Below, in pieces: positions 47,363 through 63,576 of a DNA stretch of 64,000 bases (position 1 is the stretch's first letter; each line of letters starts with the position of its first letter). The translations under genes were made by a program, and so were the position numbers. This DNA is from an uncultured Candidatus Binatia bacterium (lineage in GTDB: Bacteria; Desulfobacterota; Binatia; UBA9968; CAXXLF01), in NCBI GenBank assembly GCA_965215595.1, contig CBDCDW010000006.1, positions 138,129-202,128 on the forward strand. The letters run 5' to 3'. The notes under the pieces were generated by a model, which saw only the letters and a program-made list of their open reading frames with translations, was not told the DNA's origin and made no database searches.

Positions 47363-48448
47363 TTATTTGAGCTCCACGATGTTAAACGCGGCCACGGGGC
47401 GGACAAACCCCTTTAAATGCAGTTCTTCGAGGGGCTCGGCCACTACGGAATCTTCTATCTTGCTGAGGGTCCGCTGGTTCGTGAGGATTTGACCTCCTTT
47501 GGCCTCCCCGCAGAGACGGGCGGCGAGGTTGGTTACGTTGCCCACTGCCCCATAGTCCATGCGGCCCTCGAAACCGATATTTCCCAGAGTCGCGTAGGCC
47601 GCGGTTACGCCAACCCCCAGATCAAGGTCGTAACCTTTTTTAACCCACTCCGTGCGAAGCTCCTGTACCTTGTCACGCATTTCAATGGACATGCGCACTG
47701 CCTTTTCAGTGTGGTCCTCGCAGGGTATGGGATCATTGAAGAAGACCATAATCCCATCTCCGGCAAATCGCTCCAGGGTTCCCTCATATTTAAAGATTAG
47801 ATTGCCCATTTCTGCGTGGTAACTCTTTAGCAACTCCATGACCTCCTCAGGCTCGGCGCTATCAGAGAAGGCGGTAAAACCACGTAGGTCCAGGAAAACG
47901 ACAGTGATCTCACGCCGATGGCTCTTGAAGAGACTATCGTCCTCGCTTTTGAGGATGGTCTCGGCTATTTGCGGGGCCAGGTAACGCTTGAGACGGTTCA
48001 TGTGTTCAATCTCATCTAACTGCTGGGCAACTTTATCAGACAAGGTCCGATTCCATTCCTCTAAAGAGTCATGCATCTCTTTGAGACGCATCATGGTCCG
48101 CACCCGGGCTAAAAGCTCGACGGTCTCAAAAGGCTTCACGACGTAATCATCCGCCCCGGCGTCTAGACCCTTGGCCTTGTCTTCCTGGGACCCCTTGGCG
48201 GTTAAGAGGATCACCGGTAGGGTCTTGAATTTTTCATCCTGTCTTAACAGTTTCAGCACCTCGATGCCGTTCATCTTGGGCATCATGTAATCGAGAAGGA
48301 CAACATCGGGGAGGAACGACTCAACCTTTTGGAGCGCCTCCTCGCCGTCGCTGGCCCTTTCGATGGTGTAATCTTCCTCGATCAACTCCTGGTCCAGCAG
48401 ATCCAGGTTAAACGGGTCATCATCCACAATTAATACTTTTTTTGCCAT
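47363..48448 (-). CDS. Response regulator receiver fused to a class III adenylate/guanylate cyclase domain
   Basis: 361 aa. REC domain (VLIVDDDPFNLDLL...LLDYMMPKMNG), coiled-coil linker, CYCc domain (VVFLDLRGFTAFS...FAGDGIMVFF). Confidence 0.8.
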   Translation of the reverse strand: MAKKVLIVDDDPFNLDLLDQELIEEDYTIERASDGEEALQKVESFLPDVVLLDYMMPKMNGIEVLKLLRQDEKFKTLPVILLTAKGSQEDKAKGLDAGADDYVVKPFETVELLARVRTMMRLKEMHDSLEEWNRTLSDKVAQQLDEIEHMNRLKRYLAPQIAETILKSEDDSLFKSHRREITVVFLDLRGFTAFSDSAEPEEVMELLKSYHAEMGNLIFKYEGTLERFAGDGIMVFFNDPIPCEDHTEKAVRMSIEMRDKVQELRTEWVKKGYDLDLGVGVTAAYATLGNIGFEGRMDYGAVGNVTNLAARLCGEAKGGQILTNQRTLSKIEDSVVAEPLEELHLKGFVRPVAAFNIVELK

Positions 48449-48602: not shown

Positions 48603-50017
48603 TAATCTAACCCAAGGGCGATACGTTGCGCCATTTGTGATTCTAACCCTCCAAGGGCTCACATTAGAGCTCAAGGAGGGCAACAATGGAAGGGTTCACC
48701 ATGGCACGACGATCCAAGCAGGAGTATTTACGATCCATCTATGATCGTTATCAGCACGCACCACGGGCACAGAAGGGAACGATGCTAGAGGAATTCTGCA
48801 AGGTTTGCGGCTACAACCGCAAATATGCCATCTGGCTTTTAAACCGGCCCTTGCCCGAGGCAACTGTACGCAAACGGGGTGCACCTCGCTCTCCTACATA
48901 CAATCGGGCAATGGTAAGGATTTTGGCAAAGGTGTGGGAGGCCTCGGGGTATCTGTGCTCCCAACGTCTGAAGGCCGCCCTTGTACACTGGTTGCCCTGG
49001 ATAAGGCAACACTTCGAGCTGACCCAACCGTTAGAGGATCAGCTCCTGGCCATCAGCGCCCGTCAGATGGATCGGCGCCTGAGGGAAACCAAGCACATCG
49101 TGAAACGCCGACTCTATGGCACCACTCGGCCCGGATCGCTACTAAAGCAGATGATCCCGATTAAGACCGATCACTGGGATGTGAACCGGCCGGGCTATCT
49201 GGAGATTGACCTGGTGTCACACTCAGGGGCCTCAGCGGTTGGGGAGTTTGTCCATAGTCTGGACTGTGTCGACATTGCTACCTGCTGGGTAGAGCGCAAG
49301 GCCGTCATGGGTAAGAGCGCTTTGGGTGTCTTGAATGCGGTCACCGAGATCGAACACCAGCTTCCTTTTCCCCTCAAGGGGATCGACTCCGACAACGGCA
49401 GTGAGTTTATCAACAATCGCCTTCTTGCCTTCTGTCAACAACGCCCAGCTGGCCACACCATTCAGTTCACCCGCTCGCGTCCCTACAAAAAAGATGACAA
49501 CGCGCACATCGAGCAGAAAAACTGGACCCATGTCAGAAAGCTTATGGGCTGGGATCGCTACGACACCGCAAAGGCCCAAGAGGCCGCCAACCAGCTCTAT
49601 GATGAGCTTAGGATCTTCCAGAATCTGTTCCAGCCCTCCATGAAGCTGCGATGCAAGATCCGTATAGGCTCTCGACTTATTCGCCGCTATGACACGCCTC
49701 GTACCCCGTTCGAACGGGTCGTGGAGTCCCGAAAGGGAGACCCCAAAAAGCTGGCAGCCCTCAAGCACACGCTTAAGACAACTGATCCCTTCGAGCTCTC
49801 TACCCGAATCGATCAGCAACTGCAGCGGATCTACAAGCTGGCCAGCCATGCAGACAGAGCCCCACGAGAGAGACCACCGCTGAAACAAACGCCGTGGAGA
49901 AACTGGACCTTCAGCAAGAAACTACAGCGCCAACAACAGGACATGAAACGACAGATGCGAGACGACTTCGGTTAGATTTTGTAATGACGCAACGAATCCC
50001 GCTAGGGTTAGATTTTT
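48603..50017 (+). mobile_element. IS element with ~43-bp imperfect terminal inverted repeats, encoding one rve-type DDE transposase. Family uncertain, IS481-like by architecture.
   Basis: The left end (48603-48647) and the reverse complement of the right end (49974-50017) align over ~45 nt at about 70% identity; both carry two internal copies of the ATCTAACC block. Single 429-aa ORF inside. Confidence 0.7.
48686..49975 (+). CDS. DDE transposase (integrase core / rve domain) with N-terminal HTH
   Basis: D..D..E-type motif DSDNGSEF; N-terminal HTH region; HSGAS...CW core. Confidence 0.82.
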   Translation: MEGFTMARRSKQEYLRSIYDRYQHAPRAQKGTMLEEFCKVCGYNRKYAIWLLNRPLPEATVRKRGAPRSPTYNRAMVRILAKVWEASGYLCSQRLKAALVHWLPWIRQHFELTQPLEDQLLAISARQMDRRLRETKHIVKRRLYGTTRPGSLLKQMIPIKTDHWDVNRPGYLEIDLVSHSGASAVGEFVHSLDCVDIATCWVERKAVMGKSALGVLNAVTEIEHQLPFPLKGIDSDNGSEFINNRLLAFCQQRPAGHTIQFTRSRPYKKDDNAHIEQKNWTHVRKLMGWDRYDTAKAQEAANQLYDELRIFQNLFQPSMKLRCKIRIGSRLIRRYDTPRTPFERVVESRKGDPKKLAALKHTLKTTDPFELSTRIDQQLQRIYKLASHADRAPRERPPLKQTPWRNWTFSKKLQRQQQDMKRQMRDDFG

Positions 50018-50510
50018 TGATGGCTTAACACGGGGCTCGGGGGCGGACCCCATTACCCGGTACATGGGCGTTGGGGCTAACGCCGTGAGGGACGTAATCC
50101 GCCTGGTTTTTGACGGAGTGTTCGACAGGTTCCCGGCGCTCCAGTACTATTTTGCCGAGACGCAGATCGGGTGGATCCCCAATTGGTTGGAGCACGTGGA
50201 CAACGCTTACGAGAGGTACATCCTGTGGGCTCATGAGGTCTACGGGATGCCGATGCTCCAGCGCGCGCCGAGCGAGACCATCAAAGAGCACATCCATTGG
50301 GGCTTCATGTATAACCCTGTGGGAGTCCAGCTGCGCCATCAGATTGGCCTGGACAAGATTATGTGGGAATCTGATTTCCCGCACCCCGCCACCGACTGGC
50401 CGCACTCGCAGGACACGATCAGAAAGAATTTCGAAGGTGTACCCGAGGACGACAAGTACAAGATGCTTGCGGGGAACTGCATCCGCTTCTTCCATCTGGA
50501 TGAGCCGTAG
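50018..50510 (+). pseudogene. 5'-truncated amidohydrolase-2 family gene; only the C-terminal ~160 codons remain, abutting the IS right end
   Basis: The frame is open from the IS boundary through ...IMWESDFPHPATDWPH...CIRFFHLDEP*. No cognate N-terminal half exists upstream of the IS. Confidence 0.6.
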
Positions 50511-50618: not shown

Positions 50619-51857
50619 ATGTTTTCCAGATTGAGACATTCAATAAGCAGATATGCGGTCATGGTTTTCCTTGTTGCTATGGGGCTCATGGTGTTACTGA
50701 CGGCGGCTTGGGAGTTTGACCCGACACCGACAGCGACCCCCACGGCGTTCGCTGCGAACGCAAAAGCTGCCTGGGAGGTGGAGTGGGAGGAGACCATAGT
50801 CAAAGCAAAACAGGAGGGTGTGGTTGTGATCATTGGACGGGTCCCGCGGGAGATGGACCCATTCGTGAAGGTCTTCGAGAAGAAGTATGGCGTGGATGTA
50901 CAGGTCACGGGTGGCCGCTCCTCCGAGTTGGCCGACCGACTCCTTGCCGAGCGCGCAGCGAAGCGGTTCACCACCGACCATGCCCTATTCGGTACGGGTA
51001 CCTCCGCCCGGGTTTTGATTCCCAATGGTCTCCTCGTCCCGATACTCCCGCAGATTATCCTCCCGGAAATCAAGGACCCATCCAAATGGTATAAAGGTCA
51101 TCTGTGGTGGGCCTCAGCCGACCGTTACCACAAATACTACCTGCTACACGCCTCCCCCGTGCAGCAGGCCGATCTGTTGTCGAGATACAACACCAACAAA
51201 GTCTCCAAAGCTGAGTACGATTCCATCAACTCCGTCTGGGACTTTCTCGACCCCAAGTGGAAAGGCAGGATCGGAGTGTTTGCGCCCACGGAGAACCGCG
51301 GCGCAACCACTGACTTCTACATACATCCGGCCATTGGGCCGAAGTTTTTTAAGCGCTTGTCCACCGAGATGGGCGTCGTCTTTTTCTCGGACCAGCGGTT
51401 GATCGTTGACCAGCTAGTTCTGGGTGGTATCGACATCGGGTTGTTCCTCGGTAGGAGCACTGACGCCGACTTAGATGCTCTAGGGAAGCAGGGAGCACCC
51501 ATCGGCGATTTCCTTGGCAAGGCGGCGACCTGGGCCGAAGGCGGCTTCTTGAACATCGGGACGGGCAGTCGCGCCGTCAACATAGTGAGCAAGGCTGCGC
51601 ATCCCAATGCGGCAAAACTTTTCGCGAACTGGATGCTTTCCCGAGAAGGTCAGATCGCGTGGCAAGAGAAGTACGGCCTCGGTACGAAAAGGATACCGTA
51701 CCCCACCATGCGGATCGACGTGAAGTCTCCGGGTCGGACGCGTCCGCATGAGCGAAGGTATCCGGGACAAGACTATCTCGTCCTGGCCGAGCTCCCCGGC
51801 GTCGATTTCGACGCCTCAATGGCGGCGATGCTTGAGCTGTACAAGTCAACGAGGTGA
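50619..51857 (+). CDS. ABC transporter periplasmic substrate-binding protein (family-1 SBP, Fe3+/small-molecule type)
   Basis: 412 aa. Signal anchor; SBP_bac_1-like bilobed architecture. Followed by a fused double permease. Confidence 0.65.
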   Translation: MFSRLRHSISRYAVMVFLVAMGLMVLLTAAWEFDPTPTATPTAFAANAKAAWEVEWEETIVKAKQEGVVVIIGRVPREMDPFVKVFEKKYGVDVQVTGGRSSELADRLLAERAAKRFTTDHALFGTGTSARVLIPNGLLVPILPQIILPEIKDPSKWYKGHLWWASADRYHKYYLLHASPVQQADLLSRYNTNKVSKAEYDSINSVWDFLDPKWKGRIGVFAPTENRGATTDFYIHPAIGPKFFKRLSTEMGVVFFSDQRLIVDQLVLGGIDIGLFLGRSTDADLDALGKQGAPIGDFLGKAATWAEGGFLNIGTGSRAVNIVSKAAHPNAAKLFANWMLSREGQIAWQEKYGLGTKRIPYPTMRIDVKSPGRTRPHERRYPGQDYLVLAELPGVDFDASMAAMLELYKSTR

Positions 51858-51992
51858 GTCCCTCTCGATGAACATTGAGTCAATCAAGCTCTAGGCGCGG
51901 CCACCGCGAGTGAACTCTAAGGTCTCGCCCCGCTCGGAGGGGATCGTTGCTCGCTGAGTCGCAGACATCGATCACGGCAAAGGGCGATCTTC

Positions 51993-53741
51993 ATGCAATC
52001 GGTTAGGACAGGCTGGGCAGGGCAGCTGAAGCGGAGGGCGAACAGTGTGGCGCGCCCCAGCGTCTTCATAATGGGCGCGGTCCTCATCACTTTGTCCTTC
52101 TATCTTCTTTATCCAATCCTGCTCGTACTCAGCTATTCGTTCAACACGGCCGTACATCCGTTCCTGGGCACCGAATGGGGCCTGGACCATTGGCGTGTAG
52201 CCTTCACAAAACCACTCATCCTCACGGCTATTTTCAACTCGTTCCGCATCTGGTTCCTAACCCTCGTGATAAGCCTGCCGTCCGCATGCCTGATTTCCTG
52301 GGTGTTGGCTCGCACCCGGATTCCATGGAGCAACGGCCTGGAGTTCATGTTCTGGATCTCGTACATGGTCCCAACGCTGGCCACCACCATTGGCTGGATC
52401 ACCCTGCTGGATCCGCGGATCGGTCTCATCAACCAGTGGGCCGTGCGGCTTCCCTTCATCGACTCCCCGCCGTTTAACATTTTTTCCGTGCCCGGCATCG
52501 TTTGGGCGAATCTGATGGGTAACGGCATCGCATTGAAAGTCATGTTGCTAACACCAGCATTCCGGAACATGGACGCAGCGCTGGAGGAGGCCGGGCGCGT
52601 GAGCGGGGCCTCGAACCTCCGCACGATAATTCGGGTCACGTTGCCGTTGATGGTCACACCGATCACATTGGTGTTCGCGCTCCAATTGCTGCGGGTCTTC
52701 CAGTCGTTCGAGACGGAGCTGCTCTTGGGCACACCCTTCAAATTCGTTAACTACGCCACACTGATATATCAGCTCGTGAGGCCCGGGGAAGACGACATCC
52801 CACGGTACGGCGAAGCGACAGTACTGGCCAGCCTCACGATAGTGATCATCGCAGCGATCATTCCGTTCCAACGGTGGGTAATGCAGCGGCGCCAGTACAC
52901 GACCATCTCGGCGGGTTTCAAGTCGGGGCTGATCGACCTTGGGCGGTGGAAGTTTGCGTTGGTGTTCGGCATATGGTTCTTGATCATCCTGCTCACGCTT
53001 GCACCACTAGCGTCGTTGATCCTCGGCAGTTTCATGACGCGCGCGGGTTTCTTCATGTTAAATCCCGTGTTTACACTCAACAACTGGATGGCCATCCTCT
53101 CCGCAGAGGACTTTCAGAGGGCCACAAAGACGACGCTGACCCTGGGTCTCACGGCTGGCATCTTTAGCCCCGTGCTCTTCTCAATGCTCGCTTACATCCT
53201 GGTACGAACGAAGTGGGCCGGTCGAGGCCTCTTGGATTGGATTATCTGGTCCTCGGGGGCCATACCCGGAATGCTGTCCGGCCTGGGCCTCTTGGTGCTG
53301 TTCTTGGGAACACCGGGGCTCAATGTGCTGTTTGGCACCGTCTGGGCGCTGGTGCTTGTGGTAATCGTCTCCGGCAAGGTCACTGGCGTGAACATCATGA
53401 AAGGCACGCTGGTGCAGGTTGGGCAGGATATGGAGGACGCTGCGCGGGTGGCCGGGGCCGGCTGGCTGAGGACGTACTTTCGGATATGGATCCCATTGAC
53501 GATCCGCACGTGGATGTTGATCGCGACGCTCAATTTCGTCAGCGCGGTAGGCGCCACCAGCAGCGTGATATTGCTCGCCTCCAGGGACACGATGACGCTA
53601 TCGATCTTAGCATTGCACTATCGATTCGATGCCAATCAAGAGGCAGCCAGCATCGTCTCGATCATCCTGATGATCATGACGGTAGGACTCGCCTCTCTCA
53701 TGCGGGTGTTTGGGCTACGCTTGGGGGTGCGACACAACTGA
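51993..53741 (+). CDS. ABC transporter permease with two fused BPD-type transmembrane domains (FbpB/AfuB-like)
   Basis: 582 aa. Two EAA-loop-like regions (EEAGRVSGASNLRTIIRVTLPL and EDAARVAGAGWLRTYFRIWIPL). No ATPase gene follows. Confidence 0.72.
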   Translation: MQSVRTGWAGQLKRRANSVARPSVFIMGAVLITLSFYLLYPILLVLSYSFNTAVHPFLGTEWGLDHWRVAFTKPLILTAIFNSFRIWFLTLVISLPSACLISWVLARTRIPWSNGLEFMFWISYMVPTLATTIGWITLLDPRIGLINQWAVRLPFIDSPPFNIFSVPGIVWANLMGNGIALKVMLLTPAFRNMDAALEEAGRVSGASNLRTIIRVTLPLMVTPITLVFALQLLRVFQSFETELLLGTPFKFVNYATLIYQLVRPGEDDIPRYGEATVLASLTIVIIAAIIPFQRWVMQRRQYTTISAGFKSGLIDLGRWKFALVFGIWFLIILLTLAPLASLILGSFMTRAGFFMLNPVFTLNNWMAILSAEDFQRATKTTLTLGLTAGIFSPVLFSMLAYILVRTKWAGRGLLDWIIWSSGAIPGMLSGLGLLVLFLGTPGLNVLFGTVWALVLVVIVSGKVTGVNIMKGTLVQVGQDMEDAARVAGAGWLRTYFRIWIPLTIRTWMLIATLNFVSAVGATSSVILLASRDTMTLSILALHYRFDANQEAASIVSIILMIMTVGLASLMRVFGLRLGVRHN

Positions 53742-54159: not shown

Positions 54160-55167
54160 CTAATTTAAGCCGGACAATCCGACAAAACTCCCCGCATTTT
54201 GTTCCGCCAACAAACGCATCAAGTGTGCGAAGCGAGTTCTGTTCGCCCTGCCCAGGTCGCTAAGGAAAAGAACCGGAAATCCAAATGTATGGATGCGTAC
54301 CTTTGGATTGCCTGATGCGTCCTTTTTGTTGATTCGGGCGACTTCTCTGAGTACTTGATCTGTGCTGCCGCTGGAAAAATCGTCGCCGAAGACATAGAGG
54401 CTGATGCGTTTATCCTTATTAAAAAACCGTTTCACCGCAAACAACACCCCTTCCACGGGACTGCTATTGCTGAAGCTTTGCCAGGTTCTGAACCGGGTGA
54501 TGACGGCTTTACGGCGGGCCGGGGTATCGGGGATCCAGCGTCCCGCATACGTACTATACATATATTCTCCCATGTCATTGATCACCTGAATCCCCTTCAC
54601 CTTGGGGTGAACCGCCAGCACCTCCTCAACCTTTTTCACAACCAGGGGCCATGCGGCTCTCAGCATACTGCCTGACGTATCAACAATAAAAATGATGTAT
54701 TCACTATCGACGGGTATACCCCCGATGGTTATGTCTTTGTCCGGTGGTTTGTAGGTTGGCTGCGCAATGAGGCGTTTCATTTCGTCACTCAGGGTCTGGC
54801 GCACGGCTTGAAGTTCCCTCTCGATCCGTGTCTGCTCATTGGCTTGACTCTGGGCCGCCGCGCTACGATCCCTGGCAACGGACCATTGCTCGCTCAGCGC
54901 CGCGAGGCGATTTTGTATCTTTCTTAGTTTCTTTTTTTTCTCAGCGAGCTTACGGGTTAGGTCCTGCCCCTCGCCCACCACCTTTTCCCTATCACCTTTG
55001 ATTTGCGCAATCTTGTCGATCAAATCCACCAAAATTCGTTGGACAGTCTTAGGTTCACTGGCCAGAGCGATAATTAGCAAAAGAATGATGGCGCCAAATC
55101 CGCATGAGATGGCATCGAGAAACGACAGGTTAAAAACTTCTACGTTGCGGCGTCGGCTTTTCGTCAC
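54160..55167 (-). CDS. Fusion of an ExbD/TolR-like transmembrane anchor, a coiled coil and a von Willebrand A domain (paralog 2)
   Basis: 335 aa. N-terminal NVEVFNLSFLDAISCGFGAIILLLIIAL, with the conserved membrane Asp in ExbD/TolR-like position. ~100-aa K/E/Q/R-rich coiled coil. VWA with MIDAS IIFIVDTSGSM; also LYVFGDDFSSG. Confidence 0.7.
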   Translation of the reverse strand: MTKSRRRNVEVFNLSFLDAISCGFGAIILLLIIALASEPKTVQRILVDLIDKIAQIKGDREKVVGEGQDLTRKLAEKKKKLRKIQNRLAALSEQWSVARDRSAAAQSQANEQTRIERELQAVRQTLSDEMKRLIAQPTYKPPDKDITIGGIPVDSEYIIFIVDTSGSMLRAAWPLVVKKVEEVLAVHPKVKGIQVINDMGEYMYSTYAGRWIPDTPARRKAVITRFRTWQSFSNSSPVEGVLFAVKRFFNKDKRISLYVFGDDFSSGSTDQVLREVARINKKDASGNPKVRIHTFGFPVLFLSDLGRANRTRFAHLMRLLAEQNAGSFVGLSGLN

Positions 55168-56255
55168 GGCCAGTTCCTTGACGGTGTGATAAACGAACCG
55201 CCTGTTGCGATGGCCAATCTCCAGAACGCTTCGGCAGCGGTAGGGTCGCCCTCGAGCGGAAAAAGCAGTGTGTTGATGGGAATCCCCCTTGGCAATCTAG
55301 CGGTGGCAGATTCAAATAATTTCAGTCGATCTTTTGCCGAAATGGTATTGGCCCTTGTGGCCCGAGAGCCCTGGGTGGGGAGCCCGTCGGTTAGGAGAAT
55401 GATACTATCCGGCTTGGGTTTGAGCCTGCTAGCAACCGCGAATGCCTGGTGCAAGCTGGTGCCCTTTTCCGGTGCTATTTGTCTGACCGAGGCAATTGCG
55501 TCGTTCAACCGATGGGCCTCGCTGCTGGATAACCACCGTCCTTCAGTGTCTGCGATGACCGGATGGGCCTCCGTATTGAATTGGTAGACTTGGAATTTCT
55601 TGTTGCTTTGTAGATTTGCCACCAGCCAGTGCAGCGAACGGACAACGCGACGCCATTTAGGAGCCTGTCGACGCGATTCGGCGTTCATGAGTTTGCGGCG
55701 CACGATATTGACAATGATCTCGTCCAGCATGCTCGCCGATGCATCGAGCAATATCAACGTGCGATCGCCGCCAAGTTTCAAGCCGGTCAGGTATTGTCTT
55801 CGGCCATCGCCCGTGTAACCGATGATACGCCCGCTCGGCTTCGCAGTTATCGTCTCCCTTGATTCGAGGAGCTTTTTGGCGCTTTCGAGGGCTTCTTTTT
55901 GCCTCTCGATTGCCTCAATGGCACGCTCCTGTTCACGGGCCGATTTCGTAGCCTCTTCGGTCTGTCCCTGTGTTTCGCGGATTTTTGCCAGGAGTTGCCT
56001 GGCCTGTCCTTCTAATTCTCCTTCTCTGATCTCGGTCTTCGTGACTTCATTCTGCAGATTTGCTAGGTGCTCGCGGGCAAAATCGTACAACGCGGTCACG
56101 CGATTCAGCTCGCCCTGGAGGTCTTCCTTTTTTTCTTCCCGTTTTTCCAGGACCTGCCCATTGAGTATCATGACGAGCAAAACGACTGCGCCAAAGCCAC
56201 AGAACATGATATCCAAAAAAGCCAGGCTGAAGGGTGTGCTTTCGCGTTTTTTCAT
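55164..56255 (-). CDS. Fusion of an ExbD/TolR-like transmembrane anchor, a coiled coil and a von Willebrand A domain (paralog 1)
   Basis: 363 aa. N-terminal STPFSLAFLDIMFCGFGAVVLLVMIL; coiled coil; VWA with MIDAS LILLDASASM and SIILLTDGLPTQG. 4-nt overlap with paralog 2. Confidence 0.7.
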   Translation of the reverse strand: MKKRESTPFSLAFLDIMFCGFGAVVLLVMILNGQVLEKREEKKEDLQGELNRVTALYDFAREHLANLQNEVTKTEIREGELEGQARQLLAKIRETQGQTEEATKSAREQERAIEAIERQKEALESAKKLLESRETITAKPSGRIIGYTGDGRRQYLTGLKLGGDRTLILLDASASMLDEIIVNIVRRKLMNAESRRQAPKWRRVVRSLHWLVANLQSNKKFQVYQFNTEAHPVIADTEGRWLSSSEAHRLNDAIASVRQIAPEKGTSLHQAFAVASRLKPKPDSIILLTDGLPTQGSRATRANTISAKDRLKLFESATARLPRGIPINTLLFPLEGDPTAAEAFWRLAIATGGSFITPSRNWP

Positions 56256-56277: not shown

Positions 56278-57078
56278 TTAAGCCTTGAGTCGATTTATAA
56301 ACAGGTTGTCGCAATACCGTTCAGTGCCAAGCACTAATCGCTCTTGCATCAGTTGAATCTGATGGATGATAAACATCAATACGATGCTGATCAGCAATGC
56401 GATCAAGGTGGAGTTGAATGCCACACCGAGACTCTGGGTCACGCCCGTAATATCGCCGCTGACCGCTTGATGGGCCTGCCCCAGTGCATTACCGATGCCA
56501 CGCACCGTGCCGATGAATCCAATGGAGGGTATTGCCCAGGCTATATAGCGTATAATCGAGAGTTCCGATTCGGAACGCTCTGCTTCCGATTCACACATGT
56601 CATGGACCACCATTGAAGCGTCCTGAATGCTTTGGGTCGTGGCAAAGCGGTCACTCGCACTGAGCAAAATGCTCAGCAAAATGTACTCCTGCATATTGAT
56701 GGGGACTTCCTCCCGGATCCTCTTTGATATGCCACGCGCCGTTTCAACGCTAATGTTGGCGTTTTTCGGCAAACCGATAAAATCCCACTCAAGTTGGCGC
56801 TGCTGGCGTAACGCAACCCACCCCTTGAAGGTCAGTATCGCCAAAGCCCAGAACATTAGTACAAAACAAGCCTCTTGCTCATAATCACGGATCACAACGT
56901 AGTAGGAACGCTCTGGCACAAAATTAGGATCGATTTTCATTTGCGCATGTTGCTCGGCCAGAAATGCGTCGGCGTTCGGCCGAACCACGGCAACGTAGTA
57001 CGCATGTATGACGATGAACGCTATCAAAAGCGCAAATACTTGGATGACCAGTTCGGTTGGAAAGTACTTTTTCATCAT
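56278..57078 (-). CDS. MotA/TolQ/ExbB-family proton-channel protein
   Basis: 266 aa. Three transmembrane helices; C-terminal signature IAWAIPSIGFIGTVRGIGNALGQ...GDITGVTQSLGVAFNSTLIALLISIVLMFIIHQ, compare TolQ/ExbB LGLLGTVxGM...GIxEALxTT. Confidence 0.75.
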   Translation of the reverse strand: MMKKYFPTELVIQVFALLIAFIVIHAYYVAVVRPNADAFLAEQHAQMKIDPNFVPERSYYVVIRDYEQEACFVLMFWALAILTFKGWVALRQQRQLEWDFIGLPKNANISVETARGISKRIREEVPINMQEYILLSILLSASDRFATTQSIQDASMVVHDMCESEAERSESELSIIRYIAWAIPSIGFIGTVRGIGNALGQAHQAVSGDITGVTQSLGVAFNSTLIALLISIVLMFIIHQIQLMQERLVLGTERYCDNLFINRLKA

Positions 57079-57084
57079 GTGACC

Positions 57085-57342
57085 TCAAATGTCCGTCGGA
57101 AATGAAACCGCTTTGTCGGCAGACACTTTTTCACTGGGAACGAATGTTAAAGGCGGGGGTGTTTTCTGGCGTTTACTCTCATCCGCCGTGGGGGGCCGGA
57201 TACCCGAAGGTTCAGAAGTTGTCTTATTGGATTCGGACGCCGCGAGGGCGTATCCGATGACCACCATCGAAATCAGCAACACCCCTAAACAGTATATAAT
57301 CAAGCGTGTATTACTTCGGCGATTCCGTGGCATAACGTGCAA
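57085..57342 (-). CDS. Possible small membrane protein, one transmembrane helix plus a Pro-rich tail. Weak call.
   Basis: 85 aa. LIIYCLGVLLISMVVIGYALAA, then PSGIRPPTADESKRQKTPPPLTFVP. Sits in the 230-nt gap between the MotA-like and FHA-PEGA genes, overlapping the latter by 32 nt. Confidence 0.3.
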   Translation of the reverse strand: MHVMPRNRRSNTRLIIYCLGVLLISMVVIGYALAASESNKTTSEPSGIRPPTADESKRQKTPPPLTFVPSEKVSADKAVSFPTDI

Positions 57343-59758
57343 TCCTGAAACCGATGTCGTTGCGAGGTTTCAACGTATAGTCCCGGTAGGACAACCGCAA
57401 CTGCGTAATGCCCCCGTGGCGCCAGCTAGCCCCTCGGACCCCATGAAGGTCCCCCGTTTTTGGGCCCATGGGATCGCGGAGCACCTGTTTGATGCCGCCC
57501 GTATATACATAGTAGTAGTCATGAATCCATTCTGCGACATTACCGCCTAAATCAAACAACCCGGCTTTGTTGGGTGGAAATTGACCCACCGGCGCCGCGA
57601 ATAAATACCCGTCCGAGTATCCTTTAATGATCACCGGCAATCGACCCGAGGCCGTGTCGTCGGCGTAGTTGCCGCTCCTATTGGGCGGTGGCATTTTAGC
57701 GCCCCATGGATACTTCAACGGCTTGTCGGTAGAGCGATGCCCCCCTTCATATCGCGCTGCGAACACCCATTCGGCTTCCGTAGGCAGACGATACCCGGCT
57801 GTCATGGGCTCCACAGCCACCATCTTTCCGTTCTGCTCACGATAGGCAGGCCGAAAACCGTCCTGTTTGCCGAGCCAATTCATATATCGTGCGGCATCGT
57901 CCCAGTGCACCGATACAACGGGTTGATCGGGCTGGTTCAAACTAACGCCCTTTCTGGTTCCCGAATCATGTTGCTTCCTGAATCTGTGAAACTCCTTATT
58001 CGTCACTTCCTTTTCGCTTATAAAAAACGAGCGAGTAAGCTCCACCACGTATTGTGTTTCATTGGAGCGTCGGCCCGCCTCCCGGCGCGAGGCGCCTAGT
58101 CGGAATTGGGTTGGTTTACTTATCTGAATTTGGAGTAACACTTGACCCGCCGCCGTCTTTGGTTCGTTGGCCATAACCTTCGATTTGGCACTACGAATCT
58201 TCTCGAGGCGAACATCAAGGCTCTTTGAAATTCCCTGTCGAGGAGTGACGTTCACTGAGTGGGTCTCATATCCGGGTTTGGTGATTTCCAACCGATGCGG
58301 CGCAGTGCTTAGCCGTAATCGCTGCGATGCGGATCCCGCATCTTTGCCATCCACTTTGAGCCTTGCGCCGGCAGGTCGGGTATTGAGAAATACAATACCG
58401 TGCTCAGCCGTTAACTCAATTTCGAGAGAATTTGGCTTGTCACCATCGAGTCTAACCGTCCGAGACACGGTCTTAAATCCTGGCTTATCAACCGTTAATT
58501 TGTGGTCCTGGCCTGACTTGAGGGTAAGGGTGATGGGTGAAGGCCCGCGGAGTTCCCCATTCACCGTAACGGCTGCACCCGACGGGGAAGTGGCAAGCTT
58601 TAGAACGCCGTCAACCTTCTCGAGTTGGAACAACGGTAGCTTAACCGTCTCATTTGCCTTGACCCTTACATCACTGGAGAGGGGTTTCCAGCCGTTCTTG
58701 CGAAGTTCTATACGATGGTTGCCGTTCATGGGCTCCACCCTGAGGGGCGTTACACCAACTCCGGTTCCATTTAGCAGCACTTCCGCCCCGCTGGGCTCGC
58801 TGGCAATTTCCAGGGTGCCCCACCCGGGCATGAGGGTGACCTCTTTGGTTTGACTGTCCCCTTTCCCACGAACCTCAATTGTCTCCTTGAAGGGGAGATA
58901 ACGATCCGCCTCCACGCGGAGTTCGCGCCGGCCAGCTTCGACTTCCAAAGATTTTAACGGTGTGAGCCCCGCCTCCTTACCATCGATGAATACAGCAGCA
59001 GACGTAACCGGGTGGGACACCACGTCAAGAAATCCGGGCAATTCGATTAATTTAAAACTGAGCACCAATTCCGATCCGAACTCGACATCAATGAGTTGTT
59101 CGAATTTACGATAACCTGACTTTTCCGCCTCAACCACATACCTTCCTGGCAAGGCCAAATACCGTCCAACAAACGGTACGGTGGGCCAAAAACCGCTAAG
59201 GGACACCGAGTCCGGCTTCGGAGTTACAGTCACCCGCACGGGAGCAGCCGCGATGACGAACACAACCCCACCCAATAGCAATGCAAACAACGCGAAGAGC
59301 ACTTTCAAACCCCGGTTACTTCGTTCACGAACGTGACCGATGGGTCTTACCGGAGTGATATTCGGTTCAGCCGAGGTTCCTTTGCCTGTCCCTTCCATCG
59401 CAGAAACGGCTAGGTTACCCGTTTGATGGGTACTCTCCGCTTCAACCGGCGACAGCACCAATGTTCCGGCCGTGCGCGCAACTCGGATCACCTGCCGGCC
59501 AATTTCGATTGTGTCGCCTGCAGCAAGCCACGCCGATTCTTCGAGCCTGCTGCCGTTCAACTGAACGGATTTAGACCCGGCTACGGGTTGTAGAAAAATT
59601 TTTCCCTCTTTATCCCCAAGCCATGCCACCACTATTGATTCCGCGAGGGTGCCAAACAGCAGGGATTCATCGTGGGATACACCAATGGCCAAAGGAAGGT
59701 CTGGCTCTGAAAGATCTTGCATCCCCTCAAAACCATTGATCCGTAAAATTGCGGTCAA
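57311..59758 (-). CDS. Multidomain envelope protein: cytoplasmic FHA-like domain, transmembrane helix, 4x PEGA domains, and a C-terminal FGE-sulfatase (SUMF1/GldJ-K-like) domain
   Basis: 815 aa. FHA-like N-terminus (LAIGVS...VQLNGSRL...GDTIEIG); TM VLFALFALLLGGVVFVIAAAPV; PEGA repeats (SEPSGAEVLLNGTGVGVTPL; ATSPSGAAVTVNGELRGPSP; NTRPAGARLKVDGKDAGSAS); FGE domain (GYRLPTEAEWVFAARYEGG...FDLGGNVAEWIHD...RGASWRHG...GFRIARY). Confidence 0.7.
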   Translation of the reverse strand: MTAILRINGFEGMQDLSEPDLPLAIGVSHDESLLFGTLAESIVVAWLGDKEGKIFLQPVAGSKSVQLNGSRLEESAWLAAGDTIEIGRQVIRVARTAGTLVLSPVEAESTHQTGNLAVSAMEGTGKGTSAEPNITPVRPIGHVRERSNRGLKVLFALFALLLGGVVFVIAAAPVRVTVTPKPDSVSLSGFWPTVPFVGRYLALPGRYVVEAEKSGYRKFEQLIDVEFGSELVLSFKLIELPGFLDVVSHPVTSAAVFIDGKEAGLTPLKSLEVEAGRRELRVEADRYLPFKETIEVRGKGDSQTKEVTLMPGWGTLEIASEPSGAEVLLNGTGVGVTPLRVEPMNGNHRIELRKNGWKPLSSDVRVKANETVKLPLFQLEKVDGVLKLATSPSGAAVTVNGELRGPSPITLTLKSGQDHKLTVDKPGFKTVSRTVRLDGDKPNSLEIELTAEHGIVFLNTRPAGARLKVDGKDAGSASQRLRLSTAPHRLEITKPGYETHSVNVTPRQGISKSLDVRLEKIRSAKSKVMANEPKTAAGQVLLQIQISKPTQFRLGASRREAGRRSNETQYVVELTRSFFISEKEVTNKEFHRFRKQHDSGTRKGVSLNQPDQPVVSVHWDDAARYMNWLGKQDGFRPAYREQNGKMVAVEPMTAGYRLPTEAEWVFAARYEGGHRSTDKPLKYPWGAKMPPPNRSGNYADDTASGRLPVIIKGYSDGYLFAAPVGQFPPNKAGLFDLGGNVAEWIHDYYYVYTGGIKQVLRDPMGPKTGDLHGVRGASWRHGGITQLRLSYRDYTLKPRNDIGFRIARYATESPK

Positions 59759-61278
59759 ATTTTTTCCTCACAGCGAACGATGATGACCGTTTCTTCACTC
59801 GATACAGGCACGCGGAAACGAACACGGACATCACGATAACCGGTACGGGAGCCCACTACTGTATATTCCCCGGGCCGCAGCATCATGCGACGCTCGCTAA
59901 AACGGCCAAAGCGTCCTATTCGGTATAGTGTAACGTCAGTCAGTTTATCAGAGCGGAGGACAACGGGGCGGGGCGTGCTAAAGTCATCCACGAGGGTACC
60001 CAGGCGCTCAAGCTTTGCACGTAGGTTCGCACCGAGGTTCGACATTCCACTGGACATTAACAGTAACTTTCCTGCTTGCGCCAATGGATCGGGCGACTGC
60101 AAGCGCTCCGGATTTGTCAGGAAAAAATCAACCTGCCGGTCTAGCCGAACATATTTTTCCGCCCGGGTTTTGCCTCGCATGGCAAAAGTCGCATTCTGAT
60201 CGATGCCCAATGCTTGGTCGTAGGCCTTGAGAGCCTGCTCCCAACGTTTACCTTCCTCATGCTGCGCGGCACTCCTGCGTATCTCTTCCAGTGCGGAAAT
60301 TTGCTTCGCTTTCCGCAATTTTCGACCGAGGCTTTGAACTTCGGGAGCGTTAGGGCGAAAGCTGGCCGCCTGATCCAGAGATTGCTGCGATTGCTCAAAT
60401 TCTTTTCGTTCCAATGCCGCCGATGCGGAGGATATGGCGCTTTTGTATTTCCGCTTGACAATTAACTCGTCGATCCGCCGCAGGCGATCACGGGCGGGTT
60501 GATAGTCCCCGTCGAGGGCAATTGCCGCGGCATACTCTTTCTTCGCCTGGACTAGATCCCCTTTCGATTCAAAGGCATGCCCTTGCTGAACTCGTTCAAT
60601 GACTTGTTTGAGATTACGCGCCCTGTTTAAACCGTGGTTTGCGGCCACATTCCCCGGATCAAGGGAGAGAGCCATTTCAAACTGGGTTTGTGCCGCCTGG
60701 TCATCGATTTGCTCGAGGGACTTCGTCCCTTTTCGCATTGCATTTTGCAGCCGATCCGGTTGGCTGGTTTCGAGCTGGTTAAACAGTGACAAGGTCTCGC
60801 TATAGCTCTTCCCGGCTAGCTCAAAACGCCCGGCATCAAGATGCGCATTCCCATCGGCAACTTTCGCCAAGGCGGCCGGGTAACTCGTTGCCATTTTTTC
60901 TTTACCCCAAATCTTGACGCCGTTGTTTTCAAGCCGTGCCTGATGTTCCAGGACTCCGCGCAGCAGATTTTTCGCCTTCATTTTCGCGTGGGCTTGAAGC
61001 TCAGAAGTTTTCGTCGATTTGGAAATCGGCGTTTCGGGTCTGGGTGTCTCCGTTTTGGCCGGAGTCGTATTGGATGGCCGGCCGACCAGTCTGGGCAAGA
61101 TCACGACCACTCCTATGGCTCCCACAGTGACAACCGCAAATACGAGGAACAACAATACATTTGAGCGTTTGTACCCGGCCTCCTGTGAAATAGAAGGCGG
61201 CACCGAGGGTGAGGTAAGATCTGGTTTGGCCTTCGCTGGCGGTGGCGTGAGCACCGGTCTGCGTGGCTTCTGTTCCAC
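59755..61278 (-). CDS. Membrane-anchored TPR-repeat protein
   Basis: 507 aa. Pro-rich N-terminus; TM LLFLVFAVVTVGAIGVVVIL; multiple TPR-like helical repeats (AY..ALxxDPxN-type); basic C-terminal beta-rich tail. Confidence 0.6.
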   Translation of the reverse strand: MEQKPRRPVLTPPPAKAKPDLTSPSVPPSISQEAGYKRSNVLLFLVFAVVTVGAIGVVVILPRLVGRPSNTTPAKTETPRPETPISKSTKTSELQAHAKMKAKNLLRGVLEHQARLENNGVKIWGKEKMATSYPAALAKVADGNAHLDAGRFELAGKSYSETLSLFNQLETSQPDRLQNAMRKGTKSLEQIDDQAAQTQFEMALSLDPGNVAANHGLNRARNLKQVIERVQQGHAFESKGDLVQAKKEYAAAIALDGDYQPARDRLRRIDELIVKRKYKSAISSASAALERKEFEQSQQSLDQAASFRPNAPEVQSLGRKLRKAKQISALEEIRRSAAQHEEGKRWEQALKAYDQALGIDQNATFAMRGKTRAEKYVRLDRQVDFFLTNPERLQSPDPLAQAGKLLLMSSGMSNLGANLRAKLERLGTLVDDFSTPRPVVLRSDKLTDVTLYRIGRFGRFSERRMMLRPGEYTVVGSRTGYRDVRVRFRVPVSSEETVIIVRCEEKI

Positions 61279-61297: not shown

Positions 61298-62677
61298 CTA
61301 AAGCTGTTCCATTTCCATCCCGTTCTCATTTGGAACAACGGGAATGGAATCGGTAGACCCGTTCTCGATTGAATCGATGGGTTGTACTTCTGTGGGGACG
61401 GAAGGTCTTAGTGTACCAACCTCCCGTTCATGAATGTCTTTTAGAATTCCACGCCACTGTTCAAATTTCGCTTCGGCAGAACCCCTCAGTTCCACCGTTT
61501 CACCCTCGATTTGAACCACAGTGACTTTAAGGTCTTCCGACAGAGAGTCACCAAGTTCCTCCAGTGCCGCTTTGTGGATCTCCATATCCTGTTTGGCTTT
61601 GGACGACGCCTCAATAGCCATACTGACGCTGACAGCGGTGGCCGTTCCCGCGATGACACCGCCAACAGCCGCACCAGACTTTCCGCCGGCGACAGCAATG
61701 CCCACCCCCACAAGGGTCCCCAAGACTCCCAATGCGACAGCACGGCCCAACTTTTTATTCCGCTTTTTTTCCAGATCACGTACGGCATTCATCTCATTGA
61801 GGCGGGCGCTGCGCCACTGGGTATACTCAGCACTCATTTCCCGGGATAGCCTTTCGTATTGCAGGTCCAGGGTGTCAACCAGTGCTTCCTCACGGACGCG
61901 AATGCGCCTAATTCGCTTCAACATGGAATCATCATCTGCCGGTAGCCGCGCAACCCTGAAAATTGGACTGGTCTCAGATGGTGCAGAATTCCTTGACCAG
62001 AAGGAATTGGATTCCTGCTTCAGTACCCCGTTAACCAAGTAGCCCTTGAACGCATCCGGTGCGAACTCTTCGGCGAACCTCAGTTCTGCAACCTGACGAA
62101 TCGACTCGACTTCCTTGGACGCCATCTTCACGCGATGCTGTGCCAGATCGTTGGCGATTCGGTTGTATAAATATTGAAAGGGTTCTGTGTTGTTTTCCAA
62201 CCGGTCGTAGACTTTAAGATCCACGACTTCTTCATACTCTTTTTCAAACCATAACAACCCGGTGGCGTCATGGACACTGATTTCAAGCTTCAATATCTCA
62301 CCATCGGATTCCAGGATCCGGCCGGTGATGATCACCTCACCGCCGGTAACCGCCGTGGAAACAACCCGTACGGGCCCCCAATAGCCCGACTGTTGCATGG
62401 CGTTTCTTAACTGGACCGCTGAGTAATACCCTTCCGCCTTCCGGATTTCCTTGGATATGCCACGTGACTCATCCTCCTCTTTCGAGATCTCTCCCGGCTC
62501 AAATGGCTTGATTCGGACCCCCAAGAGCTCAGCTTCAACGATTTCCAATTTCGGCTGAGCAAGTACGACCTTTTCGTAGCTCACGTCTCGTTTTGCGAAG
62601 GTAGACGCACATCCACCCAGGAAACAAATTCCGATAATGGCTCCGAGCCAAACTCGTATTTGAGACCCAAGTATCAT
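61298..62677 (-). CDS. Predicted lipoprotein with a C-terminal Gly/Ala-rich glycine-zipper segment
   Basis: The likely start MILGSQIRVWLGAIIGICFLGGC has lipobox LGGC. Central coiled-coil region. ALGVLGTLVGVGIAVAGGKSGAAVGGVIAGTATAV glycine zipper. Acidic C-terminus. Confidence 0.5.
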   Translation of the reverse strand: MILGSQIRVWLGAIIGICFLGGCASTFAKRDVSYEKVVLAQPKLEIVEAELLGVRIKPFEPGEISKEEDESRGISKEIRKAEGYYSAVQLRNAMQQSGYWGPVRVVSTAVTGGEVIITGRILESDGEILKLEISVHDATGLLWFEKEYEEVVDLKVYDRLENNTEPFQYLYNRIANDLAQHRVKMASKEVESIRQVAELRFAEEFAPDAFKGYLVNGVLKQESNSFWSRNSAPSETSPIFRVARLPADDDSMLKRIRRIRVREEALVDTLDLQYERLSREMSAEYTQWRSARLNEMNAVRDLEKKRNKKLGRAVALGVLGTLVGVGIAVAGGKSGAAVGGVIAGTATAVSVSMAIEASSKAKQDMEIHKAALEELGDSLSEDLKVTVVQIEGETVELRGSAEAKFEQWRGILKDIHEREVGTLRPSVPTEVQPIDSIENGSTDSIPVVPNENGMEMEQL

Positions 62678-63576
62678 CTTTTTGAAGTCTTGTACTTTCG
62701 ATATTCGTCCCACAGCTTTTCTTTCATCACCGGGTCCTGTTCCTTTTCCGCGGCCTCCCGCAACTGACGGGCAACGACATCGTCGTCGTTGCCACCCCCT
62801 ACAACTCTACCCCGAGGACTGGTTTTGACTTGTTTTTCTACTCCAGGAGCCGCACCCGCCTCTGCCATACGCGGCTTGGAGTCCGTGCCTTTTTCTTTAG
62901 ACGAAGATCCATCAGATTGGGTTTTCGCACCACCTGGATCTGATTGAATATTTCTGTCATCACCCTTTTCTTTTGTGCGCTGCGGACTTCCTTCTGATTT
63001 TTTGCTTGCTACTATTTCCTGAAGCTTCTCTTGTTTTTCTTGTTGCCAGAGATCAAATTCGTTCAGTGACTTGGTAAGCGGGTCTTCTATCGAGGCCAAC
63101 TTCTCCTTGTCAGTCTGCGCAGTCGTGGGAGTTTGCGGCGAACCCTGTCCTGAGGGAGGCTTCTCTTCGGGCAAGCGGCACTTAAATCCCAGTCTGTCCG
63201 GATCACCACCAAAGGTTCGATACTTTTGACAAGCCTCCAACATCTTGCGATGAAGGGAAGCGACGAATTCGGCGAATTCCACAACCGCAGGATCGTTTTC
63301 AGTCTCTGTCTTAACCCGCCGGAGCTCCCGAAACTCGGCTTCATTCTGGCGCCATTCCACATCGCTGGCGTGTAACTCGGCCAAAGCTTCAGCCAGCTGG
63401 CGCTTGGCATCCAAGTCGACCTGGGTCGTAGCCCAAGCCGTAGTCCCGATCAATAGACCGAATAGCATTAAGGCGGGAACATAACTTATATTCCCTCTTT
63501 TTGAACCGCTTCGTAGGTTGTGCCTACGACTCCATGGTTTCACCCTAAATTTGGTGTGCATTCGATCTCCAAACAT
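62674..63576 (-). CDS. Secreted or membrane-anchored low-complexity protein, first gene of the operon
   Basis: 300 aa. N-terminal hydrophobic segment VPALMLFGLLIGTTAWA, then a charged coiled-coil-prone, K/E/Q/S-rich low-complexity sequence. Confidence 0.4.
   Translation of the reverse strand: MFGDRMHTKFRVKPWSRRHNLRSGSKRGNISYVPALMLFGLLIGTTAWATTQVDLDAKRQLAEALAELHASDVEWRQNEAEFRELRRVKTETENDPAVVEFAEFVASLHRKMLEACQKYRTFGGDPDRLGFKCRLPEEKPPSGQGSPQTPTTAQTDKEKLASIEDPLTKSLNEFDLWQQEKQEKLQEIVASKKSEGSPQRTKEKGDDRNIQSDPGGAKTQSDGSSSKEKGTDSKPRMAEAGAAPGVEKQVKTSPRGRVVGGGNDDDVVARQLREAAEKEQDPVMKEKLWDEYRKYKTSKR

Follow-up and report, generated by a model that had tools for sequence, protein, structure and literature searches.

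Five classes of ion-driven motors with a 5:2 design have been studied experimentally, namely the flagellar, Ton, Tol, gliding/type IX secretion system (T9SS), and Zorya motors. The channel subunits TolQ and ExbB have three transmembrane (TM) helices, and in the AglR-AglQ-AglS system for the gliding of Myxococcus, two distinct small subunits, each bearing an Asp, are encoded behind a TolQ-like gene. The closest described design is that of the genes for TM-tethered von Willebrand factor A (vWA) domains, termed TPH-vWA (PMC12204202; Mol Biol Evol 2025). According to the passages of that paper on TPH-vWA, these genes are found in Proteobacteria and Verrucomicrobia, for the most part as heterologous pairs, and tightly co-occur with tolQ homologs, without tolR or exbD. 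In the encoded proteins, the Asp of the 'trans-pore helix' is conserved and an SHLS motif is lacking, and AlphaFold3 (AF3) puts the helices inside a pentamer, where a Thr ring surrounds the pair of Asp residues; the work in those passages is computational, with no experiments. A survey of MotAB relatives (mBio 2025) does not mention vWA, and our literature searches found no other treatment of this design and no experimental work on it. Here we analyzed two adjacent genes of this kind, VwaA and VwaB, which lie next to a gene for a channel subunit, MotA266, in a 64-kb stretch of DNA from an uncultured Candidatus Binatia bacterium (contig CBDCDW010000006.1). The whole stretch is referred to as the window, and all coordinates are window positions (Table 1). 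We propose, with a probability of roughly 0.65, that MotA266, VwaA, and VwaB constitute a proton-driven motor of the 5:2 type, the axle of which bears vWA heads and works on envelope proteins.

Every feature that the above-mentioned passages state for TPH-vWA and that we examined was found in VwaA and VwaB, with no stated difference: a single TM helix combined with a vWA domain, adjacency to a tolQ-like gene, a TM Asp without SHLS or His, and a heterologous pair. The sequence-only reading of this DNA had interpreted the pair as part of an ExbD/TolR-type motor; this interpretation is supported overall by the results described below and was already in print as a computational prediction (PMC12204202). 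The passages on TPH-vWA contain no mention of an eight-gene operon, a heptad stalk, its fixed length, or evidence for a heterodimer. What we add to the published prediction is a conserved eight-gene envelope operon closed by VwaA and VwaB, which is new relative to it, controlled comparisons with ExbD/TolR showing that the link is thin, a stalk constrained in length, hints of a heterodimer, candidate ligands, and cultured hosts.

Both open reading frames (ORFs), together with the N-terminal strings that the sequence-only reading had quoted, were found on the minus strand where that reading had placed them. The GTG start codon of VwaB overlaps the stop codon of VwaA as GTGA, so that 4 nucleotides (nt) are common to both genes. 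The two proteins are paralogs (hhalign probability of 99.4% and an E of 5e-22) with an identity of ~23%; they were alignable without gaps from the TM helix through the stalk, and a single insert of 11 residues was found in VwaA. When one genome per species was considered, the relatives of VwaA were detected in at least 543 species. The best 80 loci, on which the counts below are based, belong to Alpha-, Gamma-, and Deltaproteobacteria, Acidobacteriota, and Verrucomicrobiota, and include those of two cultured strains, Sulfidibacter corallicola M133 and Biformimicrobium ophioploci NKW57. VwaA and VwaB were both present in 71 of the 72 loci with enough downstream sequence. In the exceptional locus, which is of a metagenome-assembled genome (L017:11089-13500), VwaB was absent and unrelated small ORFs followed VwaA, representing either an assembly artefact or a real loss.

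The sequence-only reading had relied on an Asp in the TM helix, and this residue was invariant in 152/152 homologs, as well as in 156/156 VwaA/VwaB ORFs from the 80 related loci and the window. In the homolog alignment, F13, L14, and D15 of VwaA were conserved at 90% or more and C19, G20, and G22 were invariant, while the invariant positions of VwaB comprised S15, F16, L17, D18, S21, C22, G23, F24, and G25, as well as E38-P39 directly after the helix. A six-frame translation of the window contained exactly two copies of the motif [FL]LD-x3-[CS][GA][FL]G, one in VwaA and the other in VwaB; across the loci and the window, this motif was present in all 156 ORFs of VwaA/VwaB and absent from the 7,567 other ORFs. 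The frequency of the majority residue (VwaA/VwaB) was highest in the TM helix (0.80/0.81), as compared with the stalk (0.45/0.53) and the vWA domain (0.63/0.72). Such a TM helix, being the best-conserved segment of the protein, is atypical of a passive anchor. Among the TM helices encoded by the operon, only those of VwaA and VwaB contain an acidic residue, none being found in the TM segments of TPR507, PEGA/FGE815, and S85, and inspection of the VwaA and VwaB helices revealed neither His nor an SHLS motif. Apart from the Asp, an invariant Cys lies 4 residues past it in both paralogs, within CGFG (VwaA Cys19, 56199-56201; VwaB Cys22, 55102-55104), and packing of the two helices against each other could bring these Cys residues face to face.

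In both proteins, an N-terminal tail rich in Arg and Lys precedes the single hydrophobic helix. Following the positive-inside rule, this organization implies that the stalk and the vWA domain are located outside the cytoplasm, and VwaA and VwaB would thus be single-pass proteins with the N-terminus inside and the stalk and heads in the periplasm. The periplasmic vWA domain on a coiled-coil stalk envisaged by the sequence-only reading agrees with this predicted topology.

The conservation of the TM helix bears on a different view of the two proteins, in which they are passive vWA scaffolds of the BatA/BatB type or peripheral transducers like TolA/TonB, and the MotA-like protein works with another partner or alone. 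BatA and BatB are likewise membrane-anchored bacterial vWA proteins with a metal-ion-dependent adhesion site (MIDAS), BatB (3ibs) was among the structural matches of the two heads, the operon gave a weak BatC-like TPR match, and the likeness of VwaA and VwaB to ExbD is weak by sequence. Nevertheless, a scaffold would hardly be expected to have its best-conserved segment in the membrane, with an invariant buried Asp and neither His nor SHLS. In Bat operons, MoxR and DUF58 are present and a MotA-like gene is missing, and BatA and BatB are not known to have a coiled-coil stalk or an invariant Asp motif in the membrane helix. MoxR and DUF58 were not found in the Pfam scans of the operon proteins of the window or of the conserved families, the latter including none beyond the listed operon genes and being scanned via their window copies. 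Neither phmmer nor the ExbD/TolR HMM (hidden Markov model) detected a true ExbD/TolR in the window or the 80 loci (MotB was not searched for), and no other acidic TM helix is available in the operon. We therefore regard a passive role as quite unlikely.

To compare the N-termini with ExbD/TolR, we used 121 diverse representatives of the latter, which replaced an earlier, narrow enterobacterial alignment giving only 8 aligned columns in hhalign, and an HMM built from them was run unfiltered. The family Asp fell on ExbD D25 in all three hhalign comparisons. Residues 1-60 of VwaB aligned with ExbD/TolR over 45 columns with a score of 23.8 and a P of 4e-4; the score was reached by 0/200 column shuffles, and the reversed control scored 14.8. 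The segment following the TM helix of VwaB, 'EP...V.R.LVDL', was aligned with 'AP...V.V.LP' of ExbD/TolR. Furthermore, VwaB and VwaA occupied 19 of the top 20 positions when 7,723 ORFs were searched with the ExbD/TolR HMM, with a best E of 0.003. As VwaA is a clear paralog of VwaB, the link to ExbD/TolR can be extended to the former. On the other hand, PF02472 gave no match at an E <0.1 in VwaA or VwaB and no OmpA domain was detected in them by Pfam, the absence of the periplasmic domain of ExbD/TolR being the reason why we do not regard the two proteins as members of PF02472. Our claim is that they may act like ExbD/TolR inside a channel without belonging to that family. The searches of PDB sequences with VwaA and VwaB returned coiled-coil noise and a spurious match to T4 lysozyme only, and the MotB chains retrieved (E of ~0.3) were matched via the coiled-coil region only.

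MotA266, of which the gene sits 22 nt upstream of VwaA, belongs to the MotA/TolQ/ExbB family (PF01618, E of 1e-13; 51 bits against a cutoff of 22.9). Its alignment with Escherichia coli TolQ was gapless over 108 columns (hhalign probability of 86%, E of 5e-6) and placed T191 and T224 on TolQ T145 and T178, respectively; both Thr residues were conserved at 95% or more in 71 sequences. The MotA-like gene was present in 78/78 loci that reach its position. Apart from the pore residues, His25 and Tyr28 are invariant in the first hydrophobic segment of MotA266, and the loop of residues 33-71 contains a conserved acidic cluster (D65, E67, and E69) plus Cys71.

Beyond the membrane, the sequence-only reading had described ~100 residues of charged, heptad-rich sequence, and these were recovered as a long helix in the AlphaFold2 (AF2) models, which were made from homolog alignments with a mean pLDDT (predicted local distance difference test) of 73 for VwaA and 71 for VwaB. 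The model of VwaA comprises a single continuous helix of residues 10-133, a low-confidence linker (134-164), and an alpha/beta domain (165-355). In that of VwaB, the TM helix (16-36) is followed by a break at E38-P39, a helix of residues 39-134, a linker, and an alpha/beta domain (157-331). Hydrophobic periodicity in both stalks peaked at exactly 3.50 residues, which was matched by 0/2000 shuffles for VwaA and 1/2000 for VwaB. About 98 helical residues at 1.5 Å each amount to ~15 nm. The spacing between the TM Asp and the MIDAS Asp was 150-157 residues in VwaA (156 in 51/71) and 141-146 in VwaB; the length of the stalk is nearly fixed across phyla. Over both stalk regions, long antisense ORFs recurred in all loci (plus strand in 54160-56255 of the window; 337 ORFs in 79 loci). 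We rejected them as genes and regard them as shadows of the coiled-coil coding sequence, which is rich in Glu, Lys, Arg, Ala, and Leu, on the opposite strand.

Two different small subunits behind a single channel gene may be combined into one axle or may serve as alternatives. When anchored at the Asp, the mean hydrophobicity profiles of VwaA and VwaB were in phase, with an r of 0.50 without offset, 0.45 and 0.46 when shifted by 7, and negative or near-zero values elsewhere, a match that is also expected from shared ancestry. The g-e' charge score over eight heptads was -1.80 for the hetero pair, +2.08 for the VwaA homo pair, and -1.07 for the VwaB homo pair. In 53/71 loci, the hetero pair scored better than the two homo pairs did on average, and cognate partners beat random ones in all but 3/500 permutations, in statistics that ignore phylogeny. 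Moreover, the overlap of the genes and their strict co-occurrence suggest coupled translation. These results modestly favour a single VwaA:VwaB heterodimer. If VwaA2 and VwaB2 instead formed two homodimeric axles, each combined with the MotA266 pentamer, there would be two motor types, reminiscent of the flagellar motors that exchange MotB and MotS stators. The two paralogs share the same TM motif and either could in principle occupy both pore positions, and the score of the VwaB homodimer is mildly favourable. Such alternatives are, however, difficult to reconcile with the strict co-occurrence and the gene overlap, with the repulsive score of the VwaA homodimer, the cognate hetero pairs being the best, and with the distinct invariant features kept in each paralog, VwaA alone having the GDGRRQYLTGL insert and VwaB alone the EP dipeptide, and we consider them unlikely. 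The sequence-only reading had likened the arrangement both to AglQ/AglS and to alternative stators; the former analogy appears to be reasonable, while the latter is less likely than a heterodimeric axle.

The vWA domains with an intact DxSxS MIDAS, which the sequence-only reading had assigned to both proteins, were recovered by the structural comparison. In the Pfam search, VwaA matched VWA_3 with an E of 9e-7 and VwaB gave a weak match only, and both AF2 models matched solved vWA domains in the Foldseek search against the PDB at E values of 3e-8 to 1e-5 (ITIH1, CLCA1, BatB (3ibs), alpha2delta, vWF A3, and Rpn10). DxSxSM was found in 71/71 orthologs each of VwaA and VwaB. As for the later MIDAS positions, T266 and D290 of VwaA were invariant. 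In VwaB, D262/D263 were invariant and the SNSSPVEG loop and FGDDF were conserved; the 'Thr' position of its MIDAS is probably the Ser in SNSSP, which was placed by secondary-structure position and not by coordinates. The linker of VwaA carries the invariant motif G-F-x-G-D-G-(R/Q)-R-Q-Y-L-T-G-L-K-L-G-G, which VwaB lacks due to the 11-residue indel. Since the conservation is strong in an apparently disordered segment, the motif suggests a candidate binding site for another component.

Altogether, we propose a motor in which a MotA266 pentamer would surround two TM helices, one each from VwaA and VwaB, in place of the dimer of ExbD, TolR, or MotB. Asp15 of VwaA and Asp18 of VwaB would carry protons, facing the ring of Thr191/Thr224. 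Beyond the membrane, both chains would be wound in parallel and in register into a coiled coil of ~98 residues (~15 nm), with a pair of metal-dependent MIDAS vWA heads held in the periplasm. These heads may grip at least one of the envelope proteins that the operon encodes, the candidates being G471, X300, and PEGA/FGE815. Rotation or pulling at the inner membrane would then be converted into mechanical work further out through the gripping heads.

Several results weigh against this proposal. The sequence likeness to ExbD/TolR is weak, with an hhalign probability of 35% at best. VwaA alone was not significant, as 8/200 shuffles reached its score and the reversed control was equal. Of the ExbD/TolR-like N-termini that the sequence-only reading had assigned to both proteins, the position of the Asp on D25 was recovered, and only the segment of residues 1-60 of VwaB passed both the shuffles and the reversal. 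A joint profile of the 45 N-terminal residues looked significant against column shuffles (1/300) but scored 19.0 against 18.8 for its reversal, and we discounted it as evidence because the reversal scores equally; the same profile hit no ExbD, TolR, or MotB chain among PDB sequences. The TM helix differs from that of ExbD by an insertion of 7 residues (CGFGAI/V) between the Asp and the periplasmic end. For MotA266, the PDB matches were TolQ chains only and had an E of 0.7, and there are four hydrophobic segments (14-32, 72-90, ~178-198, and 220-238) as opposed to the three of TolQ. VwaB is absent from one locus, and the charge test for the heterodimer covers eight heptads only and takes no account of phylogeny. 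Finally, the likeness to TPH-vWA, a family seeded from Idiomarina loihiensis, is one of the features described in the passages of PMC12204202.

The proposed motor shares with TolQ-TolR and ExbB-ExbD a PF01618 channel with the equivalents of T145/T178 and a single-pass small subunit, with the N-terminus inside and an Asp in the TM helix close to its cytoplasmic end; VwaB also shares the segment following that helix. It differs from them in having two different small subunits, the 7-residue insertion in the TM helix, and no third subunit like TolA/TonB, and in bearing vWA heads on a coiled coil instead of the ExbD/TolR periplasmic domain. In MotB and other OmpA-type stators, the small subunit has an OmpA-like peptidoglycan-binding domain, which was not detected in VwaA/VwaB. 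GldL-GldM and PorL-PorM are similar in that a dimeric subunit forms a long periplasmic shaft toward an assembly with a protein of the FGE-sulfatase fold, whereas the shaft here would be a coiled coil with vWA heads; to our knowledge, GldL is not in PF01618 and GldM has no TM Asp. In the order of a TolQ-like gene and two different small Asp-bearing subunits, the locus is analogous to the Agl genes, but AglQ and AglS are short TolR-like proteins with neither stalk nor vWA domain. The vWA adhesin of the gliding system, CglB, is a separate outer-membrane lipoprotein (PMC9946355).

Table 1. Positions of VwaA, VwaB, their segments, and the other genes of the operon in the window.
Feature	Position	Strand	Details
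VwaA	56255..55164	-	363 aa; Asp15-bearing TM helix, then heptad stalk, linker, and vWA domain
VwaA TM helix	56157..56228	-	residues 10-33, FSLAFLDIMFCGFGAVVLLV...; Asp15 codon 56213..56211
VwaA heptad stalk	55857..56156	-	residues 34-133; AF2 continuous helix 10-133; periodicity 3.50
VwaA linker	55764..55856	-	residues 134-164; invariant columns 146-163; pLDDT <50
VwaA vWA domain	55167..55763	-	residues 165-363; MIDAS D171-x-S173-x-S175 at 55745..55731
VwaB	55167..54160	-	335 aa; VwaA paralog encoded at the end of the operon
VwaB TM helix	55057..55131	-	residues 13-37, NLSFLDAISCGFGAIILLLIIALAS; Asp18 codon 55116..55114
VwaB heptad stalk	54766..55053	-	residues 39-134; AF2 helix 39-134; periodicity 3.50
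VwaB vWA domain	54163..54699	-	residues 157-335; MIDAS D163-T-S165-G-S167 at 54681..54667
MotA266	56278..57078	-	266 aa; MotA/TolQ/ExbB-family channel subunit, presumed pentamer; PF01618
S85	57085..57342	-	small single-pass membrane protein, no acidic TM residue; 26 ORFs in related loci
PEGA/FGE815	57311..59758	-	FHA-like N-terminus, TM 153-171, four PEGA, FGE-sulfatase; 65 loci
TPR507	59755..61278	-	single-pass membrane protein, TM 42-60, TPR repeats; 62 loci
G471	61298..62713	-	conserved lipoprotein, lipobox LGGC, Cys35; 55 loci
X300	62674..63576	-	low-complexity, conserved C-terminal motif DDDVVARQLREAAEKEQDPVMKEKLWDEYRKYK; 47 loci, fixed position

VwaA and VwaB close a run of eight tightly packed minus-strand ORFs extending from 63576 to 54160, in the order of X300, G471, TPR507, PEGA/FGE815, S85, MotA266, VwaA, and VwaB. 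This order was kept in the related loci wherever the contig allowed, and that of the MotA-like gene, VwaA, and VwaB was maintained in the 80 loci, contig permitting, with the orthologs being 40-60% identical. A weak promoter-like site precedes X300 (63635-63607). At the other end, a terminator scan 3' of VwaB found nothing, and nothing downstream of VwaB was conserved across the loci. Leaving the FHA parts aside, the partners encoded in the operon are predicted to be envelope proteins, which fits periplasmic vWA heads.

The composition of the operon also raised the question of an anti-phage or conflict system akin to Zorya, in which the MotA-like channel would sense envelope perturbation through the vWA heads. 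ZorA was matched weakly (E of 0.009 in NCBIfam and 0.004 in PADLOC), and FHA and FGE-sulfatase domains are known in conflict systems (PMC7159879). Nevertheless, no PADLOC system protein was matched significantly, the remaining matches being those of coiled coils (LmuB and PbeC), and because the search gave nothing beyond these and the weak ZorA matches, we rejected a role in defence. Zorya comprises a ZorA with a long cytoplasmic tail, a ZorB with a peptidoglycan-binding domain, and the effectors ZorC/D or ZorE. No match to ZorB, ZorC, or ZorD was found, nor any nuclease or other effector, and the synteny is fixed over Alpha-, Gamma-, and Deltaproteobacteria, Acidobacteriota, and Verrucomicrobiota at the above-mentioned identity. 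Such synteny across phyla looks like that of a housekeeping envelope machine rather than a mobile defence island, and we judge the Zorya-like alternative to be highly improbable.

More tentatively, the operon as a whole might encode an uncharacterised trans-envelope machine distinct from the Ton, Tol-Pal, flagellar, Agl-Glt, T9SS, and Zorya systems. The TolQ-like pentamer would then act by turning or pulling on a shaft of fixed length, a heterodimeric coiled coil, and the two integrin-like MIDAS heads might engage a periplasmic or outer-membrane assembly of the GldK-fold/PEGA protein, the TPR protein, the lipoprotein, and the secreted acidic protein. FHA domains would give cytoplasmic control, and force would pass through metal-dependent vWA bonds, making this a bacterial case of such transmission. 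We hold this extended view as possible, well short of probable.

The upstream partners can be described as follows. X300, which lies upstream of G471 on the same strand in 47 loci and belongs to no Pfam family, has a hydrophobic N-terminal stretch that we read as a predicted signal peptide of a secreted protein. Its acidic end motif, (G/N)DDD(I/V)V-x-RQ-x-REAAE-x-E-x-DPVM-x-EKLW-x-EYRK, includes an invariant DDD; that this DDD is a MIDAS ligand is pure speculation. G471, a candidate for the outer-membrane partner, retained the lipobox in at least 43/55 homologs and has two Gly-rich hydrophobic segments in residues 325-367. No significant match to G471 was found in Pfam, NCBIfam, or PADLOC, and the matches to SLATT and DUF5335 were rejected as not significant. 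In PEGA/FGE815, the Pfam matches were PEGA (E of 7e-55), FGE-sulfatase (E of 2e-36), and a weak N-terminal FHA (E of 0.039). Its match to GldK (E of 6e-27) reached 95 bits against a cutoff of 350; being far below the family cutoff, it was treated as a similarity of the fold only. In 26/78 loci, an extra gene for ~455 aa is inserted between the MotA-like gene and VwaA (e.g., L024:8575-9996, L030:8496-9995, and L039:8623-10005, plus 23 other loci), which the window lacks. The product has a C-terminal FHA domain (PF00498, E of 2e-11), and its N-terminal ~350 residues resemble actin/Hsp70 by eye only.

If the proposed motor is correct, it would represent a further class of 5:2 motors, present in representatives of at least 543 species, in which the axle itself bears the output domain, an integrin-type MIDAS head. 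It would then offer a simple system to study how rotation becomes force on a defined ligand. For practical purposes, the locus provides a defined operon with a handful of candidate ligands, specific target residues, and two cultured hosts.

Elsewhere in the window, the genes for an ABC-type (ATP-binding cassette) solute-binding protein and a long two-domain permease are located on the plus strand (50619-53741), converging on the end of the operon; they were not conserved beside the operon in other loci. The region of 48686-50510 contains an ORF of 429 aa with a weak match to the integrase core (rve; E of 8e-4), followed by an ORF of 148 aa that matches the C-terminal half of the PF04909 amidohydrolase only (157-289 of 289). 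The amidohydrolase gene looks like one truncated by the insertion of a mobile element. Lastly, the ORF at 47363-48448 encodes a response-regulator receiver (PF00072, E of 3e-32) fused to an adenylate/guanylate cyclase (PF00211, E of 6e-18).

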